DNA from: an uncultured Pseudomonadales bacterium
Lineage (GTDB): Bacteria > Patescibacteriota > Microgenomatia > UBA1400 > PJMF01
Direction of reading: 5' to 3'
Length of the DNA: 64,000 nucleotides
Assembly (NCBI GenBank): GCA_964607285.1
Contig: CAZSJW010000001.1
Coordinates: forward strand, 2,514-66,513
The notes beneath the pieces are model-generated. The model saw nothing but the letters and a program-made list of their open reading frames with translations, was not told the origin of the DNA and did no database searches. Each line of letters starts with the position of its first letter. Position 1 is the first letter of the stretch. Positions 21,783-31,289 of this stretch are shown here, one piece after another. The translations under genes and the position numbers were made by a program.

Positions 21783-23432
21783 TCAGTCGTCTAACGAATA
21801 TGCTGCGAAAACATCTGTATAGACTGGTGATAGGTTGCCTTTAGGGTCGACAATCCAGAAGCCTCTACATTGATTTGCCTCTGGTTCAGGAACGGAGCAT
21901 TCGTTATCGAGGAGCTGCCAGTAGAAAACAAATGCCGCATGTGCTGCAAGAGCAGCAGCTGTGGCCTCTCTAACTAACTTTTTTGCGTCCTCGGGTGTGT
22001 AAGAACCTGGTCCATGAGGGACGCCTAGTTCACTGATAAACACCTTGGAGTGAGGAAAAGTTACTTGCAAGTACTCGAATGCACGGCTGAAGGCAGTTAA
22101 TCCCGCCTCAAGAATGGTGTCATAAGCAGAGTATCCGATATAGTCTGGTGTAAAGTCGAGTTGTGGAATAACTGCAGTGGCTGCTCTAACCTTCTCATAC
22201 CGAGCATCTTGCACACGGTTCACCTCAACTGAATGAGTAAGTTGTAACTGGGTGTTTGGATTCTGTGACTTGGCATCAGCGATAGCACGATGAATTGTGT
22301 TGAGATACTTGATGGCATTAGCGACTGCAAGCTCTGAAGCATCAAGCTCTCTTGCTGCCCAACCACCCTGAGCCTCAAGCATGTGCCAATCAAGTTCGTT
22401 AGGCGTCTGGATAATTATTTCTTTATCTAGATGACCATAGTTTCTTAGTAAATGTGAGACGAAGTCAAAAAACTCATTGTATGTGGACTGTAATTGCTGT
22501 TCAGTCAGGGGCTGATGAGAAATATTCCAAGCTGTGGCTGATTCTGGTAGTCCTGCTTCGGTAGTCACTACTAGGTGTTTTAGTTGGGGATGTTGGAATA
22601 CCCAGCCGAACTCAGAGGACTGAGCTACATCGAGAATAGTAACGCGCTCTGGGTCACTTGGACAAAAGCCAGTGAATTGATACACCCCATGTGGGTAGCG
22701 CGTCTTGTCAGGATGAGTGCCACAAATTACTCTGGGAGAAATTTCAACCTCTAGGGAAGAAAAGCCAAGCTGTGTAGCCATTTCTACCCCATCTGCGAGA
22801 AACTCTCTGCCAGTTTGTGGGTAAAGACCTGCAATGTGTGATACACCGATGCGCTCGTCTAGGTGCACAAGCTGTGGCTGAACTTCGCGAGTAAACTCGG
22901 CATCTGGTGAGTTGGTAGTTGGTGTTGCTTCGGGATCATGTGCGGTTGCAGGAGTGACTTGAGGTATGGGGGCACCTTCCTTCTTGCGCAGGCAAGCACT
23001 CAGTCCTAATAGCAGCATGCTAACGGTACAGGCAGATGTTTGTGTCAGGAAACGGCGTCTGGAGCGAGCCAGGAGCTTTTTGCGTTCTAAGATTTTTTGT
23101 TGCAGGGTAAGGCGATGTTGAATGGTGAGCAACATACTCCGTTCTACGGGTGTGTACTTTTTGGTTGCTTGGTTTGCAGAGTAAAGCTGCTCTTGAAGGT
23201 AAGATTGCAACAGTTCAAGTACCGAATAGTATTGATCTTTGTTAGCACTCGCGAGCCCGTCGGGAGTGATTGGCAAAAGTTGCTTGGCGCAGTTTATGAC
23301 ATCGGGAAATGAGAGCTTGCCGCTGGAAAGTTTTTGTAAGCTTTGGGGTAAGGTGTTGTTTTTAGCCGTTTCGGGGTGAGGCAGCTCTCGAGGCTGTTGG
23401 ACTGATTGTTCGGTATTTGTATAAAGAACCAT
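21783..23432 (-). CDS. Clan GH-A (GH5-like) glycoside hydrolase candidate with internal Tat-like/lipobox segment
   Basis: Beta-strand + NE (IIIQTPNELDW) and beta-strand + E (KVFISELGVPHG) about 125 aa apart, as for the acid/base and nucleophile of (beta/alpha)8 GH-A enzymes. SRRRFL followed by LLLGLSAC at residues 124-147. Alternative start ATG at 23135. Confidence 0.55.
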   Translation of the reverse strand: MVLYTNTEQSVQQPRELPHPETAKNNTLPQSLQKLSSGKLSFPDVINCAKQLLPITPDGLASANKDQYYSVLELLQSYLQEQLYSANQATKKYTPVERSMLLTIQHRLTLQQKILERKKLLARSRRRFLTQTSACTVSMLLLGLSACLRKKEGAPIPQVTPATAHDPEATPTTNSPDAEFTREVQPQLVHLDERIGVSHIAGLYPQTGREFLADGVEMATQLGFSSLEVEISPRVICGTHPDKTRYPHGVYQFTGFCPSDPERVTILDVAQSSEFGWVFQHPQLKHLVVTTEAGLPESATAWNISHQPLTEQQLQSTYNEFFDFVSHLLRNYGHLDKEIIIQTPNELDWHMLEAQGGWAARELDASELAVANAIKYLNTIHRAIADAKSQNPNTQLQLTHSVEVNRVQDARYEKVRAATAVIPQLDFTPDYIGYSAYDTILEAGLTAFSRAFEYLQVTFPHSKVFISELGVPHGPGSYTPEDAKKLVREATAAALAAHAAFVFYWQLLDNECSVPEPEANQCRGFWIVDPKGNLSPVYTDVFAAYSLDD

Positions 23433-23508
23433 GGTGTGGCTGATTATACGGTAAGGTAGTGGGTGTTTGCTGGGTTAGTTTGGTGCATGGAAGAGACTGA
23501 CTTGATAC

Positions 23509-23538
23509 AAAAAGCCCCTCTTGGGGGAGGGGCTTTTC
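23509..23538 (-). terminator. Intrinsic terminator downstream of 23563..24132
   Basis: Stem AGCCCCTC/GAGGGGCT flanked by an A-run on + (a U-run on the - strand). Confidence 0.7.
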
Positions 23539-23562
23539 GATGATTGTTGGTTTTGGGTGGGG

Positions 23563-24132
23563 TTAGGAGGACGGCTCGAACCAGAAGGTGGCACCTGTGT
23601 CCCACCCTCTCGCATAGTAGTCGTTGTAAGCCAGTTGCCAGCTAGGGTGAGTGTTTAGCTCACCTCCAACATCCACAACATGGTTTCCGCTGACATTCGG
23701 ACACGGATTTTCGTTCGGAATTTCTGAGTGAGGAGGCACTGGCCAAGCCACGCCACCTGTGCAGTATCCCGCGGGGGGTTGCATGGGGCCTGAAAACAGT
23801 ATCGGGAGAAAAATCACATTTGTGCCTCCCTGCATAGGCTCGAACCAGAAGGTGGCACCTGTGTCCCACCCTCTCGCATAGTAGTCGTTGTAAGCCAGTT
23901 GCCAGCTAGGGTGAGTGTTTAGCTCACCTCCAACATCCACAACATGGTTTCCGCTGACATTCGGACACGGATTTTCGTTCGGAATTTCTGAGTGAGGAGG
24001 CACTGGCCAAGCCACGCCACCTGTGCAGTATCCCGCGGGGGGGGTCACTGTTCCGCCCTGCCCATGCACAACAAGGGCAGTCAGCAGTGAAAAGAAAAAA
24101 ACAAGCATAGTCATTGTCAACTTGCGTTCCAT
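23563..24132 (-). CDS. Secreted protein consisting of a perfectly duplicated ~69-aa module
   Basis: Signal peptide MTMLVFFFSLLTALVVHG. The module PPAGYCTGGVAWPVPPHSEIPNENPCPNVSGNHVVDVGGELNTHPSWQLAYNDYYARGWDTGATFWFEP occurs twice. SD GGAGG upstream. Looks GC-richer than its surroundings. Confidence 0.85.
   Translation of the reverse strand: MERKLTMTMLVFFFSLLTALVVHGQGGTVTPPAGYCTGGVAWPVPPHSEIPNENPCPNVSGNHVVDVGGELNTHPSWQLAYNDYYARGWDTGATFWFEPMQGGTNVIFLPILFSGPMQPPAGYCTGGVAWPVPPHSEIPNENPCPNVSGNHVVDVGGELNTHPSWQLAYNDYYARGWDTGATFWFEPSS
23573..24042. repeat. Tandem direct repeat, period 264 bp, with 206 bp identical in both copies
   Basis: 23573..23778 is identical base for base to 23837..24042 (compared by eye). 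The copies end in G6 (23773..23778) and G8 (24037..24044) runs. Confidence 0.9.
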
Positions 24133-24417
24133 TCGTATCTACCTCCACTTACACCAGCCATCCCAATCCCCGAAGTGGGGCGGGTAGGCGTGGCGATCGA
24201 GCACTTTTCCAGAGAAAAGAACCCCATCACCACGCCCGAGGCGTGCGTTTGCGGGAGGTGCAACCATAGGAACGAGCCATAGGCAGCACAACTAATTCGA
24301 GTCGCAATATACCACTTGTTAACGAACAATCATCGAGAACTGGAGCGGAATGGTTCAGCAGGCAGCAATTGCCTGGAAACAGTCACGCGCCAGGGTGCCA
24401 ATCACTTGGCAGCGTGT

Positions 24418-24446
24418 ATTATACCCCTATAGACTTATAACGTCAA
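24418..24446 (-). promoter_or_regulatory. Sigma70-type promoter TTGACG-17-TATAAT driving the 23563..24132 gene through a ~280-nt leader
   Basis: On the - strand: TTGACG (24446..24441), 17-nt spacer, TATAAT (24423..24418). Confidence 0.6.
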
Positions 24447-24469
24447 TATTATAGGTTCATACATGCAGT

Positions 24470-24498
24470 TTGACTCCAGGCTAAATATGATGTAAAAT
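24470..24498 (+). promoter_or_regulatory. Sigma70-type promoter TTGACT-17-TAAAAT for 24528..24791
   Basis: TTGACT at 24470..24475, 17-nt spacer, TAAAAT at 24493..24498. SD GGAG about 7 nt before the ATG. Confidence 0.5.
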
Positions 24499-24527
24499 AA
24501 CCAAATAAGTATTGAAATGGAGATTAT

Positions 24528-24791
24528 ATGAAAATTGAAACTATGTCCACACCACTCGCTGCTTTATTTGTAGCTGTAGCTATCGCTGCAACCGCAGGTT
24601 TAGCTTACACTGCTGCTCAACAGCAGATGCGAAACCAAGCTGTGGAGAGTTGTTTCCGCGCTGGTATGGTGGAGTCTGTCCGCGAAGGCGAAGGAGAGAC
24701 TAAAGAGCTAAAAATCACTGAGCCAGTTCGTGAAATCTACACATACTGCTTGCAAGACAAGGGGTATACCTCTGTCATTCAGGGTAAGTAG
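24528..24791 (+). CDS. Small membrane-anchored/secreted protein
   Basis: 87 aa. N-terminal hydrophobic segment PLAALFVAVAIAATAGLAY, two Cys, own promoter and SD. Confidence 0.65.
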   Translation: MKIETMSTPLAALFVAVAIAATAGLAYTAAQQQMRNQAVESCFRAGMVESVREGEGETKELKITEPVREIYTYCLQDKGYTSVIQGK

Positions 24792-25708
24792 GTATCCCTG
24801 GGATCTAAAGTCGGATCAGTTTTTTCTAACACCACACTGAAGGGTGATGTCCCGCTGTAGTGTTTTGCGTCCATCATGGCGTATGCTTCTAGTTCGTACC
24901 CAGTAGTTAGATCCATAATTTGCTCGTACAGGGTATTAAATTTGCCTCGGAGGTATCTTAGTGGTAAAGCTAGAACCAAACTGATTGAGATTGCCCCTAA
25001 AGCCGAGGGGTTTGTAAGTGCTTGCTCAGCGATGGCAAAACCTGAGATAAATGCAGCTCCCGTGAAAGCCGCAAAGGTTTTGAGACGAAACTCTAAAATT
25101 CTACGATGAGCCTGTTTCATTTCTTTTGTTGGCCCTTTGACCCTTTGTATTAGATGTTGCCGTTCATGTCTCCACATTGCATCGAGAAGTTGTCGGAAAT
25201 ATTGGGGTTTATATTCCTCTGGTAAGTTTCTAGGAAAAAATAGTCGGTGTGTATGAGGCGTCCCTTTGGTAAACAGTGAATACAGAGATAGAATGTCAAA
25301 CTGCATTTTTGGTTCTGTTAGTAGCAACCGGTGATTCAATTTATCAACTTGATCTGCTGCAGACATTAGTATTGGTACGTCCAACTTTAGAATCTGGTTT
25401 GCGTGTTCAGTATCATTGGACATCACACCAGCTTTAATGCTGCGCACTAGCTCGGATTGATTTGTTTGGCTGCTAATGATCGGTACAAAGGTGTCCGAAA
25501 TCCGTTCCGCTTCAGCCTCTGATAGACCTTGTCGAATTGCTTCTGCTTTGAGGTCTGCTCTCATGCGTGCAGTATCGATTCTGATAATTGCATGTGCTTC
25601 GGAAATCTGTATACCAATCTCGTATACTCGATCCTTCAGGAGCTCAGTCACTTGCTTTTCAGAGATGTGTCGTTGTGTTGAGCCCTCACTTGGATTTTTT
25701 TCTGACAT
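24779..25708 (-). CDS. HExxH-motif membrane protein (intact paralog)
   Basis: 309 aa. Soluble N-domain, conserved LDAMWRHERQHL (HExxH), two hydrophobic segments, then ELEAYAMMDAKHY. Paralogous over its full length to 25748..26724. Confidence 0.8.
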   Translation of the reverse strand: MSEKNPSEGSTQRHISEKQVTELLKDRVYEIGIQISEAHAIIRIDTARMRADLKAEAIRQGLSEAEAERISDTFVPIISSQTNQSELVRSIKAGVMSNDTEHANQILKLDVPILMSAADQVDKLNHRLLLTEPKMQFDILSLYSLFTKGTPHTHRLFFPRNLPEEYKPQYFRQLLDAMWRHERQHLIQRVKGPTKEMKQAHRRILEFRLKTFAAFTGAAFISGFAIAEQALTNPSALGAISISLVLALPLRYLRGKFNTLYEQIMDLTTGYELEAYAMMDAKHYSGTSPFSVVLEKTDPTLDPRDTYLP

Positions 25709-25747
25709 ACTACAATGAGTATACAGGAAACCGTGGTAGTTAGAACT

Positions 25748-26724
25748 TTAACTAAAGTATTTTTTGTGAGGATCCATGTTCGGATCAGCTTTTTCAAGCC
25801 GAACAGTGAATGGTGAGTTGGCTCTGTGGTGTTCTGCAGTCATCATGGCGTAGGCCTCAATTTCTTCGTTACTTAGCAAGTTTAGCGCTCTGTCACTAAT
25901 CATACTCACAAGTATGCTAACTGGCATAGCTAGTCCAATTGAGACGTTTACACTTGGAGGTAGCTGAAGATTCAGCAAAGACAATCCAGTAGAAGCCCAA
26001 GAAAGAAACAAAGCACCTTTAAAGACGGAGCGCATTAGGTTAGCAATTTTACGATGTCTAATATGTGAATCTGTGATTCCCTTATCCTTCTCTGGCTTTA
26101 AGTATTGCACTAAATGCTCACGCTCGTGTCGCCACATCGCATCCAGTGCTTGCTTGATGTACTGAGTTTTCATTTCTGGAGGCAGCGTATCTTTGGGAAA
26201 AACCACACGAACAGAACTTAGTGCATGTTTGCTAAATAAGGAGTGTATGCTGATGATATCAGGACTTACTTTAGCCGAGCGTAGTTGAAATCGATGATTG
26301 AAACGAGTCTCTTTTCAAATGTTTCGAGTATCCCTTCCCAGTCAAATCCGAGCATTGAGCCAAGCTCAGCAACTTTTCTTACGAATGTCCCTTGGTCTTG
26401 CTCATTTTTTCCAGGTCTTCGTCTTTGATTAAAAAGTACAATATTGTCTCTACCAATTATTGGGAAAAAAAGTTTTGCTGCTAGTTCTGCCCTGGGCTCA
26501 GAAACCCCTTGCTGTATAGCATACTCGTAGAGATCCTGGCGCATCTTACCTGTATCTACTGAAATAGTTGCGATGTCATCATCAAAGGGTTGGATAAGCT
26601 CATACACTTGATCTTCACCCAGTTCCAGTAGTTCCTCATCTGTGATTTCCTGAGGTCTGACAGGAGCGATATCTAAAGTATTTGGATGTAAAGTATCTGT
26701 AGAATGTGTCTCATCGTAGTTCAT
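25748..26724 (-). pseudogene. Frameshifted paralog of 24779..25708 (tracked as two ORFs, 26266..26724 and 25748..26206)
   Basis: The N-ORF aligns to the N-half of the intact paralog and the C-ORF to the C-half (LDAMWRHEREHL, EIEAYAMMTAEHH). C-frame homology continues upstream of its ATG (NHRFQLRSAKVSPDIISIHSLF vs NHRLLLTEPKMQFDILSLYSLF). The frames switch near GAAAAG (26311..26316). Confidence 0.7.
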
Positions 26725-29314: not shown

Positions 29315-29397
29315 AAAAAACCCCCTCATCATTGCTGATGAGGGGGGCTAAACTACGGCTTCTACTGGTGTAGCGAGTGAGCCAGAACTACGAACTT
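29315..29397 (-). ncRNA. Candidate ~83-nt small RNA with its own promoter and intrinsic terminator
   Basis: On the - strand: TTGTCA (29431..29426), 16-nt spacer, TATAAT (29409..29404). About 50 nt of unique sequence follows, then an 11-bp GC-rich hairpin (29347..29321) and U6 (29320..29315). No ORF. Family unknown. Confidence 0.45.
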
Positions 29398-29525
29398 CTT
29401 AAAATTATACTAAATTTCTATTGCCTGACAATTAGTGAATTCCAGGCTCTAGTCAGTTGTGGAGGCGACCCCGCCATGGCGGGGCAAGCCAGAGTTCGTA
29501 GTTCTGGCTCTACACCGGTAGCGCC
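29357..29525. repeat. Long imperfect inverted repeat (arms ~39 and ~32 nt, 98-nt spacer)
   Basis: Left arm 29357..29395 (GGCTTCTACTGGTGTAGCGAGTGAGCCAGAACTACGAAC) pairs with right arm 29494..29525 (GTTCGTAGTTCTGGCTCTACACCGGTAGCGCC). The core of 17 bp is perfect. Confidence 0.85.
29404..29431 (-). promoter_or_regulatory. Sigma70-type promoter TTGTCA-16-TATAAT inside the loop of the 29357..29525 inverted repeat
   Basis: Read directly from the reverse complement of 29404..29431. Confidence 0.5.
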
Positions 29526-29904
29526 CCCACAGCTGACAGGTGTAGTGTATTTTCTGATCTTTACGCAAACTGTAGCGTTCTTGTTGCAGCAAGTGCTTTT
29601 GTGGCATGCACTGGTGTTTGATCTGTTGCAAACTTTTGGGTTTTCAACTTGGTGGTGATGTTATTACGCGGTTGTAGCAGAGCAGTTTAGCTTACTGGAA
29701 ATTGAAGGGTTGGTTGATAAAACAGTTTAACTAGCGTATGAGCGTTGTAGTTCATTTCAGCTATGATGGACATTTTGTGGTGTGGTGAGAATGTTGAGGA
29801 TTGGGATAAGATTAATAGTGGGTGTATTGGCAAAAAGGGGATTGTGGTGGAGGAAGTAAAGAAAAAGTTGAGATTGTAGAGGTTTTTGAGCATGATGAGG
29901 CAAT

Positions 29905-29934
29905 AAAAAGCCCGTCTTGGGGACGGGCTTTTCA
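29905..29934 (-). terminator. Intrinsic terminator downstream of 29951..30604
   Basis: Stem AGCCCGTC/GACGGGCT with a U-run on the - strand. Near-identical in design and sequence to the terminator at 23509..23538. Confidence 0.7.
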
Positions 29935-29950
29935 GTGAGTGTTATGGGGG

Positions 29951-30604
29951 CTACGGTGAGGAAAACAAAGCAATCTTGGTCACGAATTCCTGAAACCAGG
30001 TAGCACAAAGTACATTTCGCGACAAAGCTTGTTCAGCGTATGTCACACAATAACTTGTGCGTTGCTCTGATGTCAGGAGTTGCTCGGCTCGCTGGAATGC
30101 CCATGCGAGGTGTTCTGGCGTGATATAGGACTGGTGCGGGTTCAATCCCGCAGTAGCCAATCCATTCACACTTTCACACTGCACAACGAGGGGGTGACCC
30201 AGGGCCACGTTCCCCTCGTCTAATTTCCAAACGCTTCCGTTGACCCATCCCGTTCGGTCGGCCATAGCATCAACTTCTGCGCGTCCGTTGGCTTGGCACG
30301 CGCTGTGTGCATTTGCTGGGTTGGTCGAGCCGCCCCAGGGGCCGATAACCAGGACAGTGGCGTTTTCCAGGCATTGCCAATTGTCCTTGGTAGATGTGGT
30401 TACACCCGCTCCAGACTCGTTTGTACCCTGGTAAACCAGGGCGTCTTGACCTGTACAAACGCGTTCGGTAAACACCCCAGGTGTTCCTGGGGCGGGGTCA
30501 GGAGACCCCGATTGCGCCTGTGCGGCTGGCGCGACCGGTCCAAGCAGGACAACGGCTAAAATGGCACCCAAAATGAGGCCAAGGACGATTTGATAGCGCT
30601 TCAT
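29951..30604 (-). CDS. Secreted Cys-containing protein (217 aa)
   Basis: ATG at 30604 is preceded by AAGGAG. Signal peptide MKRYQIVLGLILGAILAVVLLGPVAPAAQA. Multiple Cys. Looks GC-richer than neighbours. The tracked 270-aa ORF has an unlikely N-extension. Confidence 0.8.
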   Translation of the reverse strand: MKRYQIVLGLILGAILAVVLLGPVAPAAQAQSGSPDPAPGTPGVFTERVCTGQDALVYQGTNESGAGVTTSTKDNWQCLENATVLVIGPWGGSTNPANAHSACQANGRAEVDAMADRTGWVNGSVWKLDEGNVALGHPLVVQCESVNGLATAGLNPHQSYITPEHLAWAFQRAEQLLTSEQRTSYCVTYAEQALSRNVLCATWFQEFVTKIALFSSP

Positions 30605-31289
30605 CGTTTTAAACTCCTTACTAGCGCAAACGTTAAATGACCTTTTCGTAGTCATCACGCCTATGCCTCTTTGCCATTTCTGGCAAGTCTGACATAGGAC
30701 CCTGCGCCCAAAGCACCTCGCTCGCTGCAACAAACTTGCAGACGGAACAAAGCCTTTAGCCACACGATCCTATGCCAAACATAGAGACAGTACGCTTTGA
30801 GGAGCACTGTATTTGGTAGCCGATGTGGTTTCCCACATCTTATTCCCACTTTTTAAAGAACAATCACTGGGCAAGGGTTGATGGTAGTCGAACGGCACAC
30901 GAGGTGACGCTCGAGCAGCTATCTAGCTTGCTCTTATCAGCAGTTATGCGAACAATCATTTGGCAGCAATTGCCAATGGTTTTTCGCGGTGAACCACTGG
31001 TATCAAGAAGAAACTTCTTGACACGTGTTTCAGTCCAAACTGGGGGGAGAGAAAGAAAGGGTGGACGGAAACAACTGTCAATAAGTCTGAGAGTCATGTC
31101 GTGCGTGGCCGCAACGTAAGTGCCATCAGGGGTGAAATTGATTCGAGCGATGGCAGAGCTCGAAGCTACATAAGGCATACGTATTACTAGATAGTACTAT
31201 AGCACAATTGGGCAGTGGTGTCAATGTTATGGGACTTTATCTTGTAGAGAATTTTTGTTAGAAAGAGAGTACTTTCTTCGGACACATAC

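Follow-up and report, generated by a model that had tools for sequence, protein, structure and literature searches.

Sequence evidence for a conserved mRNA leader that may pair with its own 3' untranslated region in an uncultured bacterium

Results

The flagged leader and its transcription unit

The interval 24133..24446 on the minus strand of a 64-kb window (the whole stretch of DNA analysed, taken from contig CAZSJW010000001.1 of an uncultured bacterium; all coordinates are positions in it) had been proposed to contain the leader of a riboswitch-like or other cis-regulatory translational switch. Comparison with related loci indicates that it is a real, conserved and highly folded 5' untranslated leader of an mRNA for a secreted protein. 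Judged from its relatives, this leader belongs to a small family, absent from Rfam 15, of promoter–leader–terminator 'shells' from a bacterial lineage that has been little sampled; the genes within the shells evolve fast and encode secreted proteins unrelated to one another. Five cassettes are considered below, namely A (the flagged locus L1) and B (locus L2) in the window, C and D on contig L023, and E on contigs L028/L030.

Transcription of cassette A is predicted to start near 24413..24410, downstream of a promoter that consists of a -35 hexamer TTGACG (24446..24441), a 17-nucleotide (nt) spacer and a -10 hexamer TATAAT (24423..24418) in the upstream context CCTATAATATTGAC (24455..24442). 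With 11/12 matches, this is the best promoter-like site within 22500..26500, and it is followed by ~280 nt before the ATG, just as the original prediction had stated. A promoter and terminator scan detected no further minus-strand promoter-like site and no terminator-like site between the promoter and the ATG, nor any antisense promoter/terminator pair in the leader. The Shine-Dalgarno (SD) sequence GGAGGU (24146..24141) is separated by 8 nt from the start codon ATG (24132..24130) of a coding sequence (CDS; 23563..24132) for a 189-amino-acid (aa) protein that has a signal peptide and in which a ~88-aa Cys-containing domain occurs twice. Since an intrinsic terminator, AAAAGCCCCUC-CCCCAA-GAGGGGCUUUUU (23505..23537), closes the gene, the unit is monocistronic, comprising promoter, ~280-nt leader, 189-aa secreted repeat protein and terminator. 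The only open reading frame (ORF) in the leader, 24117..24329 (70 aa), had been described as apparently non-coding; indeed it has no Pfam match, and indels of 16 nt and 2 nt break its frame in the orthologous leader. At 395 nt, the divergent intergenic region 24133..24527 is one of about eight intergenic gaps in the window that exceed 250 nt.

A perfect 206-nt direct duplication was observed within the 189-aa CDS (23573-23778 and 23837-24042, spacing 264 nt), giving two identical protein domains. The duplication could have arisen very recently, or it could be an artefact of assembly; L029, an independent contig and otherwise an identical copy of the window locus, stops within the duplicated stretch.

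Related cassettes

Cassette B lies 6.8 kb from A (29901..31233, minus strand) and repeats its layout. A promoter CCCATAACATTGACA-17-TATAGT (31233..31196, -35 hexamer TTGACA) is followed by a leader of ~590 nt (30605..31195), an SD AAGGAG (30619..30614), an ATG at 30604, a CDS (29951..30604) for a 217-aa secreted protein with a signal peptide, and a terminator of the same type as that of A (29937..29901). The 217-aa protein is unrelated to the 189-aa protein, no homology being found on comparison. The two leaders share, in one order, GGCAATTGCTGCC, TGCCMARTGATTG (three copies) and TGATTGTTC (three copies); of the conserved blocks M1 and M2 described below, B has one M1 (30974..30962) and two copies of M2 (30968..30938 and 30877..30846). 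The 3' domain of its leader differs from that of A and forms a ~40-base-pair (bp) irregular hairpin.

L023, a Logan contig reached via a 760-aa anchor protein, carries a long leader (D) that belongs to an orthologue of the 217-aa gene (53% aa identity), as well as an L1-type leader (C, L023:118-486) whose gene is truncated where the contig stops. Scanning metagenomes for the conserved core gave one match, L028, which is the true orthologue of A (E), and the complete E cassette was recovered as L030-L033. The leaders of the window and L028 are 77.6% identical at the DNA level, with identical blocks of 33, 23 and 24 nt, whereas their CDSs share 54.7% DNA identity (first 258 nt) and 34% protein identity. 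The L028-type leader is invariant but for one position in five contigs (four Logan runs and one metagenome record). Throughout cassettes A-E and the leaders of L025-L027, the -35 and -10 hexamers and their 17-nt spacing are kept while the spacer sequence is free, and the promoter context CCYATARYATTGAC is common to all five cassettes.

The proteins themselves recovered few relatives. A word-indexed search with the 189-aa protein returned only itself, phmmer retrieved 13 distant homologues, every one a multi-repeat protein, and the secreted proteins downstream of the leaders have no Pfam domain. Word-indexed orthologue searches via the 189-aa and 549-aa neighbours gave self only, or distant matches without synteny. 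A covariance model of the 3' domain, R1, matched only A, C, D, E and identical copies, and neither the leader of B nor those of L025-L027. Two pattern searches were discarded. The pattern GGCAATTGCTGCCN{1,30}TGATTGTT gave 19 matches in unrelated taxa among genome contigs, a collection of which the window's own genome is not part, with BLAST similarity confined to the pattern; TGAYTGTTCGTTAACA gave 49 matches in viral contigs that were limited to the pattern +/-2 nt and are attributed to chance.

A further set of long leaders was seen in more distant relatives, on L025 (9380-9966), L026 (9341-9966) and L027 (7111-7736), all on the minus strand, where a homologue of the 549-aa protein follows the promoter context shared with the cassettes (CCTATAGTATTGACA-17-TATACT) and a leader of ~590 nt. 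These leaders have conserved blocks containing GTTCTTTAACA, and their long terminal hairpin is kept while its sequence differs entirely between L025 and L026; they show no detectable homology to the leader of A (no BLAST match at E<1, and none with R1).

Fold of the leader and masking of the SD

Folding of 293 nt of cassette A with RNAfold gave -119.5 kcal/mol (z = -4.3), more stable than all of 200 dinucleotide shuffles, and the leaders of E (z = -4.15) and B (z = -7.2) are likewise strongly folded. When the minus strand was tiled into 220 segments of 290 nt (mean z -0.31, sd 1.38; 20 shuffles), 24123..24412 came out as the most structured of all (z = -5.9). The runner-up, 29343..29632 (z = -5.7), has no Rfam match; an 18-bp perfect inverted repeat with a 96-nt loop (29379-29396/29493-29510) was noted there within a long non-coding stretch.

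Every element named in the original prediction, that is, the hairpins, the complementary blocks, the anti-SD and the SD, was found where it had been placed. The predicted transcript opens with the hairpin GCCAA-GUGA-UUGGC (24410..24397), whose counterpart in the orthologue, GCUUA-GAAA-UAGGC, keeps the GNRA loop with one pair compensated (A-U to U-A) and one wobble, as judged by eye. RNAalifold on A, E and C then places a 5' stem-loop at 24340..24393. It is closed by helix Pa, formed by CUGG (24393..24390) with CCAG (24343..24340) in A and E and compensated as AUGG/CCAU in C. Enclosed in Pa is the M1 hairpin GGCA-AUUGC-UGCC, the core of the CAGGCA-AUUGC-UGCCUG hairpin originally recognised. The M1 13-mer (24373..24361), which contains the palindrome GCAAUUGC, is identical in A and B, and covariation is seen in the outer stem pairs (CA/UG, UU/AA). 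Next comes M2 (CCAGUUCUCGAUGAUUGUUCGUUAACAAGUGGU, 24343..24311), the block with the highest conservation; its 33 nt are identical between the window and L028/L030, C has GAUGACUGUU in this place, and the core GAYUGUUCKUUAAMA occurs in all five cassettes. In the leader-only fold of A, M2 forms just a short local hairpin.

Both conserved blocks contain palindromes, GCAATTGC in M1 (24361-24373) and GTTAAC in M2 (24318-24323), and in B the latter is TTTAAA (30850-30855), a symmetric double change. These palindromes may serve as a dimerisation or protein-binding signal.

The 3' domain is dominated by a long hairpin, M3 (GGGCGUGGUGAU...AUCGCCACGCCU, 24186..24237), which was defined by RNAalifold on A, E, C and D together with pair counting. 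It comprises 23 aligned pairs with 96.7% of cells paired, and 11 of these pairs have changes on both sides. Between A and E, the G/U-rich 5' strand of M3 does not change, whereas the 3' strand does and still pairs; moreover, R1 scores 116-140 bits on the minus strand compared with 17-21 bits on the reverse strand. Together, these two asymmetries indicate that M3 is an RNA helix on the minus strand. A small GC hairpin, CCCGCCCC-ACUUC-GGGGAUUGGG (24162..24184), has the equivalent CCCACCCU-AGUUC-AGGGAUUGGG in E with the loop-closing pair changed from C-G to U-A (by eye). With M3 and a closing helix P1, in which the anti-SD strand CACCUCCC (24260..24253) faces GGCUGGUG (24159..24152) according to covariation and fold, it makes up a three-way junction. 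For the 3'-domain consensus as a whole, 93.9% of cells are paired, compared with ~47% when partners are slid by 1-3 columns, 14 pairs show compensatory change, and the covariation score was reached by 0/500 shuffles. On the aligned sequences, covariation thus supports three structures, namely the M3 hairpin, the three-way junction closed by SD/anti-SD, and the 5' stem-loop.

In each of the minimum-energy folds for A, E, C and D, a pyrimidine tract lying immediately 5' to M3 is the partner of the SD, in agreement with the anti-SD complementary to GGAGGU that had been pointed out for A. There the SD is predicted to pair with ACCUCC at P ~1, leaving a mean P(SD unpaired) of 0.003, lower than in 100/100 controls with shuffled upstream sequence (100 controls per leader). 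The corresponding values are 0.033 in C (anti-SD CUUCCU) and 0.014 in D (anti-SD CUCC), each lower than 94% of controls. Masking of the SD by the anti-SD is accordingly predicted by the folding model in all four leaders that share the 3' domain.

The original prediction had also described a three-way competition in which GGCGUGGUGAU (24236..24226) pairs either with the upstream CACGCC (24245..24240) or with the downstream AUCGCCACGCC (24197..24187). This part was not borne out. The 6-bp CACGCC/GGCGUG hairpin is possible in A and E but disrupted in C and D, and although 87.5% of its cells are paired, its covariation score is attained by 85/500 shuffles; the rival long hairpin has 23 bp and 11 compensated pairs.

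Complementarity between M2 and the 3' UTR

The 3' untranslated region (UTR) of cassette A contains a site, AACCAACAAUCAUCGAAAA (23534..23552, minus strand), that is complementary to the 5' half of M2 (24321-24339). The original prediction had missed M2 and this complementarity, as it had the paralogous cassette (29903..31233) and the existence of a family. The two arms are complementary at 17/19 positions with a 12-bp perfect core and form the top inverted repeat in 23400..24500, and the 12-nt core of the 3' UTR site with its subsequent A's is kept in L030 despite the divergence of the CDS. The M2 and 3' UTR segments are UCGAUGAUUGUU and AACAAUCAUCGA in A and E, CAGUGAUUGUU and AACACUCACUG in B, and CCGGUGAU(U)GUUCG and CGGACAUCACCGG in D. 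Complementarity amounts to 15/16 in E (L030), to 10/11 in B, and in D to 8 bp contiguous or 13 bp with one bulge. Where the M2 dinucleotide varies (GA/AG/GG), the 3' UTR varies to match (UC/CU/CC), representing two independent compensatory exchanges. In all four of these cassettes (A, B, D and E) the 3' UTR site adjoins the terminator stem, in A without any spacer, and no other part of the 280-591-nt leader complements the 3' UTR as well as M2 does in A, B and D, as measured by an ungapped complementarity score. This score replaced an RNAduplex ranking of the 31-nt M2 against the whole window, which was uninformative and swamped by G-U-rich noise.

When whole predicted transcripts (893-1293 nt) were folded with RNAfold without constraint, the helix formed with a probability of 0.9-1.0 in A, B, D, E and L036. 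For the 3' UTR site of A (910-nt transcript) the probability of pairing with M2 was 0.65-1.0, and for the site of B (29943..29933) pairing with M2 reached 0.94-0.99. In C, whose 3' UTR lies beyond the contig end, the pairing model would predict AACAGUCAUC beside the terminator. A by-eye search for a second M2 partner within the leader, of the tac/ucb kind, found nothing conserved.

The same layout recurs in L036, which encodes a distant homologue of the 189-aa protein family from another lineage; there an unrelated 15/15-bp pair is present with a hairpin directly after. The repeat arms (408-422/1277-1291) flank the homologous repeat-protein gene in an unrelated metagenome contig. The 5' arm directly follows TTGACA and thus possibly sits in a promoter spacer, and a 13-bp hairpin stands just upstream of the SD.

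Such complementarity might also be read at the DNA level, as inverted repeats that flank the 3' leader domain and CDS and serve invertase-driven phase variation, cassette exchange or binding of a dimeric protein. The repeats (17/19 at 23534-23552/24321-24339; 15/15 in L036) bracket exactly the segment that differs between cassettes, DNA inverted repeats would covary too, the 5' arm of L036 may be untranscribed, M1 and M2 both contain palindromes, and that of M2 changes symmetrically from GTTAAC to TTTAAA. Nevertheless, no recombinase domain was detected among scanned ORFs lying up to about 25 kb to either side (9-50 kb), and 12/12 recovered (assembled) contigs carrying A, D or E show one orientation. 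The 3' arm always adjoins the terminator hairpin, for which there is an RNA rationale and no obvious DNA one. Conservation of M2 also reaches well beyond the repeat, and the extended helix of D requires a bulge and a G-U pair. We consider a DNA-level role unlikely, with DNA inversion nonetheless a live rival.

M2 can further be read as a translated mini-ORF encoding a leader peptide (MIVR-stop) whose translation would remodel the leader. In 5/5 copies, an ATG or GTG start is followed by three sense codons and then by a TAA in frame (AUG AUU GUU CGU UAA in A and E, AUG ACU GUU CGU UAA in C, GUG AUU GUU CGU UAA in D and GUG AUU GUU CUU UAA in B), and the upstream M2 copy of B opens, by eye, a 31-codon ORF whose TGA overlaps the next GTG. 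However, no copy is preceded by an SD-like sequence, the codon changes are non-synonymous, and the identical stretch of nucleotides runs beyond the ORF, by 10 nt on the upstream side and 8 nt on the downstream side. The A/G exchange at the first codon position covaries with the 3' UTR partner, which accounts for the ATG/GTG variation, and the candidate ATG of L026 is ATA in L025. Translation of M2 thus seems very improbable.

A second complement of M2, UACCGAACAAUCA (12/13), was observed at 23403-23415, in codons 7-10 of the 549-aa CDS; it could be a trans or read-through target, or a chance match (about 1% by our estimate). It bears on the idea that a small RNA released from the 3' UTR targets M2 of its own or paralogous leaders, or that the leader acts through M2 on other mRNAs. 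The 3' site and terminator have the seed-plus-terminator layout of a small RNA, and the M2 cores are similar enough for pairing across cassettes. Yet no processing site or separate promoter is evident, the L030 genome is without the 549-aa gene that bears the second site, and the covarying positions are cassette-specific, which favours pairing in cis. Action in trans is accordingly regarded as improbable.

These data also bear on the riboswitch-like switch originally proposed, in which the 5' domain or M2 would be an aptamer whose occupancy decides the masking of the SD by P1. What stands of this proposal is a conserved, structured, cis-acting leader of considerable length, with a predicted masking of the SD, behind a conserved promoter of the sigma-70 type. 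Conservation and covariation in relatives, the lack of which would have told against the cis-regulatory reading, were both found. The 33-nt invariant block might have been a binding core, and the C-rich tract that precedes M3 could pair with either of two G-rich segments. The riboswitch label itself is unsupported. As the original prediction had acknowledged for known riboswitch consensuses, Rfam 15 offers no match at E<=10; the gathering scan of the window returned a single tRNA, and the sensitive scan of 23900..24700 only a spurious long non-coding RNA match (12.6 bits, E 2.6). Furthermore, the invariant block is at least partly explained by pairing with the 3' UTR, the alternative hairpin is without covariation support, B keeps M1 and M2 with a different 3' domain, and the genes behind the leaders encode unrelated secreted proteins with no metabolic link. 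Comparison of the leaders revealed no conserved set of unpaired junction nucleotides reminiscent of a ligand pocket, although the sequences are too few to define one. A three-way junction exists, and the nucleotides that never vary cluster in M2, the block complementary to the 3' UTR. We conclude that the leader is probably not a metabolite riboswitch, and a ligand-sensing role is improbable.

Neighbouring genes

The genes neighbouring cassette A have no Pfam domains except for one GT4 glycosyltransferase. Elsewhere, the window contains a ribosomal-protein/SecY/RpoA cluster and genes for FtsEX, a DUF4012 protein, a FemAB-family protein, a Mur ligase and RNase Y. Such a gene content suggests an organism with a small genome, either Gram-positive-like or from the candidate phyla. 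Sampling of the lineage is thin, the closest orthologue of the adjacent 760-aa protein being 49% identical. A divergent gene for an 87-aa membrane-anchored protein (24528-24791, plus strand) is kept beside the L1 cassette in three genomes (the window, L028/L030 and L023) and has its own promoter-like site, TTGACT-17-TAAAAT, at 24470..24498. The 549-aa gene on the minus strand has a TATAAT just 10 nt upstream of its ATG and no SD (23432-23447), resembling a leaderless mRNA; a CLIPPER-domain gene on L026 (TATAAT-aagcaatc-ATG) has the same look. Finally, a 309-aa ORF (24779-25708, minus strand) resembles the two subsequent 152-aa ORFs (25748-26206 and 26266-26724) fused end to end, its N-terminal half being like 26266..26724 and its C-terminal half like 25748..26206. 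These orphan genes form a duplicated, split or fused set and are an insertion relative to L023.

Discussion

The best explanation of these observations is, in our view, an SD-masking leader combined with a helix between the 5' and 3' UTRs that closes the mRNA, the two serving post-transcriptional control or stabilisation; we put the probability of this reading at roughly 0.55. Conservation of the leader, covariation of M3, Pa and the 5'-3' complementarity, and the predicted masking of the SD all point in this direction, and the helices would form in cis in the living cell.

Several points weigh against this explanation. The evidence is computational and draws on no more than five or six independent sequences, every one from an uncultured organism, and the in-vivo start site, the termination point and the pairing in cis are predictions. 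In E, where the anti-SD is ACCUC, the mean P(SD unpaired) is 0.27 and 36% of controls are as low, which is not significant. At two genes for homologous proteins, L034 and L035, neither a long leader nor, at seed 8, such a repeat is present. Of 12 shuffled 3' UTRs, two still pair strongly with the leader in RNAfold, so the sequence-level covariation, and not the fold prediction, is the real evidence for the 5'-3' helix. This complementarity is, moreover, equally describable as a DNA inverted repeat, the sole pair in the 5'-3' helix that favours RNA being one G-U in the extended helix of D, as judged by eye. Reversal or removal of the 3' site in A, B, D and E left the predicted P(SD unpaired) unchanged in equilibrium modelling, and the SD clamp and the 5'-3' helix therefore appear to be separate modules. 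A coupling of the 3' site to SD release, as in hok, was considered and is not seen in the equilibrium folding of these four cassettes.

The latter result would also suit a passive stabiliser, in which hairpins at both ends shield a highly expressed mRNA from exonucleases and RNase Y without any switching. A purely protective role is the simplest alternative. The consensus promoter and strong SD, the 5'-terminal hairpin lying at most a few nt from the predicted start, the 3' end that would stack on the leader, and the RNase Y gene in the window all agree with it. On the other hand, complete masking of the SD (P(unpaired) 0.003-0.03 in A, C and D) is hard to square with simple high expression, and the 3' half of M2, CGUUAACAAGUGG, is conserved although it is only partly within the 5'-3' helix, so that sequence conservation of its unpaired part is left unexplained. 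We rate protection without switching as rather unlikely.

On the preferred explanation of a masked SD with a closing helix, the default state would be a compact mRNA with poor translation initiation and both ends buried in helices. Once transcription is finished, the 5' half of M2 would pair with the 3' UTR and close the mRNA into a loop, with the 3' end stacked beside the leader. The structure might be opened by a double-stranded-RNA nuclease that cuts the 19-24-bp M3 duplex and leaves P1 a weak bimolecular helix, by trimming of the 3' end, or by a factor that binds the conserved 3' half of M2. Expression would then be set post-transcriptionally, without a small-molecule ligand. Tentatively, the cassettes might share a reusable shell in which the covarying 5'-3' helix, stacked on the terminator, closes only the completed transcript, thereby keeping a stable and silent store to be opened by processing. 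Such a shell would apply a principle like that of hok to ordinary secreted-protein genes, which we consider possible rather than probable.

The shell is better kept than the protein (78% compared with 55% DNA identity), suggesting strong selection on the expression of these surface or secreted proteins. The cassettes provide a defined sequence set for asking what closure does to stability, translation timing and nuclease processing, and the 3'-domain model R1 together with the M2 motif can be used for finding further members in complete genomes. A further family with 5'-3' pairing would make mRNA closure a recurring bacterial design and not a curiosity.

Long stabilising 5' UTRs are a feature of mRNAs for abundant surface or secreted proteins such as ompA and S-layer genes. 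The cassettes resemble these leaders in their strong promoter, long structured leader, 5'-terminal hairpin and exported product. To our knowledge, the SD is unmasked in the ompA and S-layer leaders and no 3' UTR partner has been described for them. With SD-sequestering leaders in general (translational riboswitch platforms, RNA thermometers and RNase III-activated leaders), the cassettes share an anti-SD/SD helix that closes a structured domain upstream of the start codon. Unlike those leaders, they have no recognisable aptamer and no match to an Rfam thermometer or riboswitch, and because the clamp encloses a 23-bp hairpin, simple melting is unlikely.

We know of very few bacterial mRNAs for which intramolecular pairing between the 5' and 3' UTRs is documented, namely icaR and the hok family. 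The mRNAs of the hok family, from type I toxin-antitoxin systems, undergo a tac/fbi fold-back between their 5' and 3' UTRs (PMC9841398, citing Thisted 1995 and Franch 1997). In common with hok, the cassettes have a long-distance helix from the 5' UTR to the extreme 3' UTR, an SD sequestered by an upstream box and a compact structured mRNA. Their closing helix has covariation support, as the hok helix reportedly does as well. Unlike hok, whose products are ~50-aa membrane toxins, the ORFs encode secreted proteins of 189-217 aa. Neither an antisense gene nor an overlapping mok-type ORF, both hallmarks of hok, was found at the cassettes, which also differ from hok in showing no coupling between helix and SD in equilibrium folding and no sequence or Rfam similarity.

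A 5'-3' UTR interaction, called a 'singular example' by its authors, has been described for the icaR mRNA of Staphylococcus aureus, where the SD itself is base-paired to the 3' UTR and the duplex provides a site for RNase III (PMC3868564). The cassettes are similar in that the 3' UTR of a monocistronic bacterial mRNA would pair with its own 5' UTR. In contrast to icaR, the predicted partner of their 3' site is M2, which lies 130-250 nt upstream of the SD; the 3' site itself is placed directly against the terminator, and the SD has an anti-SD of its own nearby. The cassette family is thus a member of neither the hok nor the icaR type, nor of any Rfam family. It differs from them in gene type, in that the predicted partner of the 3' UTR is a dedicated conserved block and not the SD, in the position of the 3' site against the terminator, and in belonging to a shell reused for unrelated genes.

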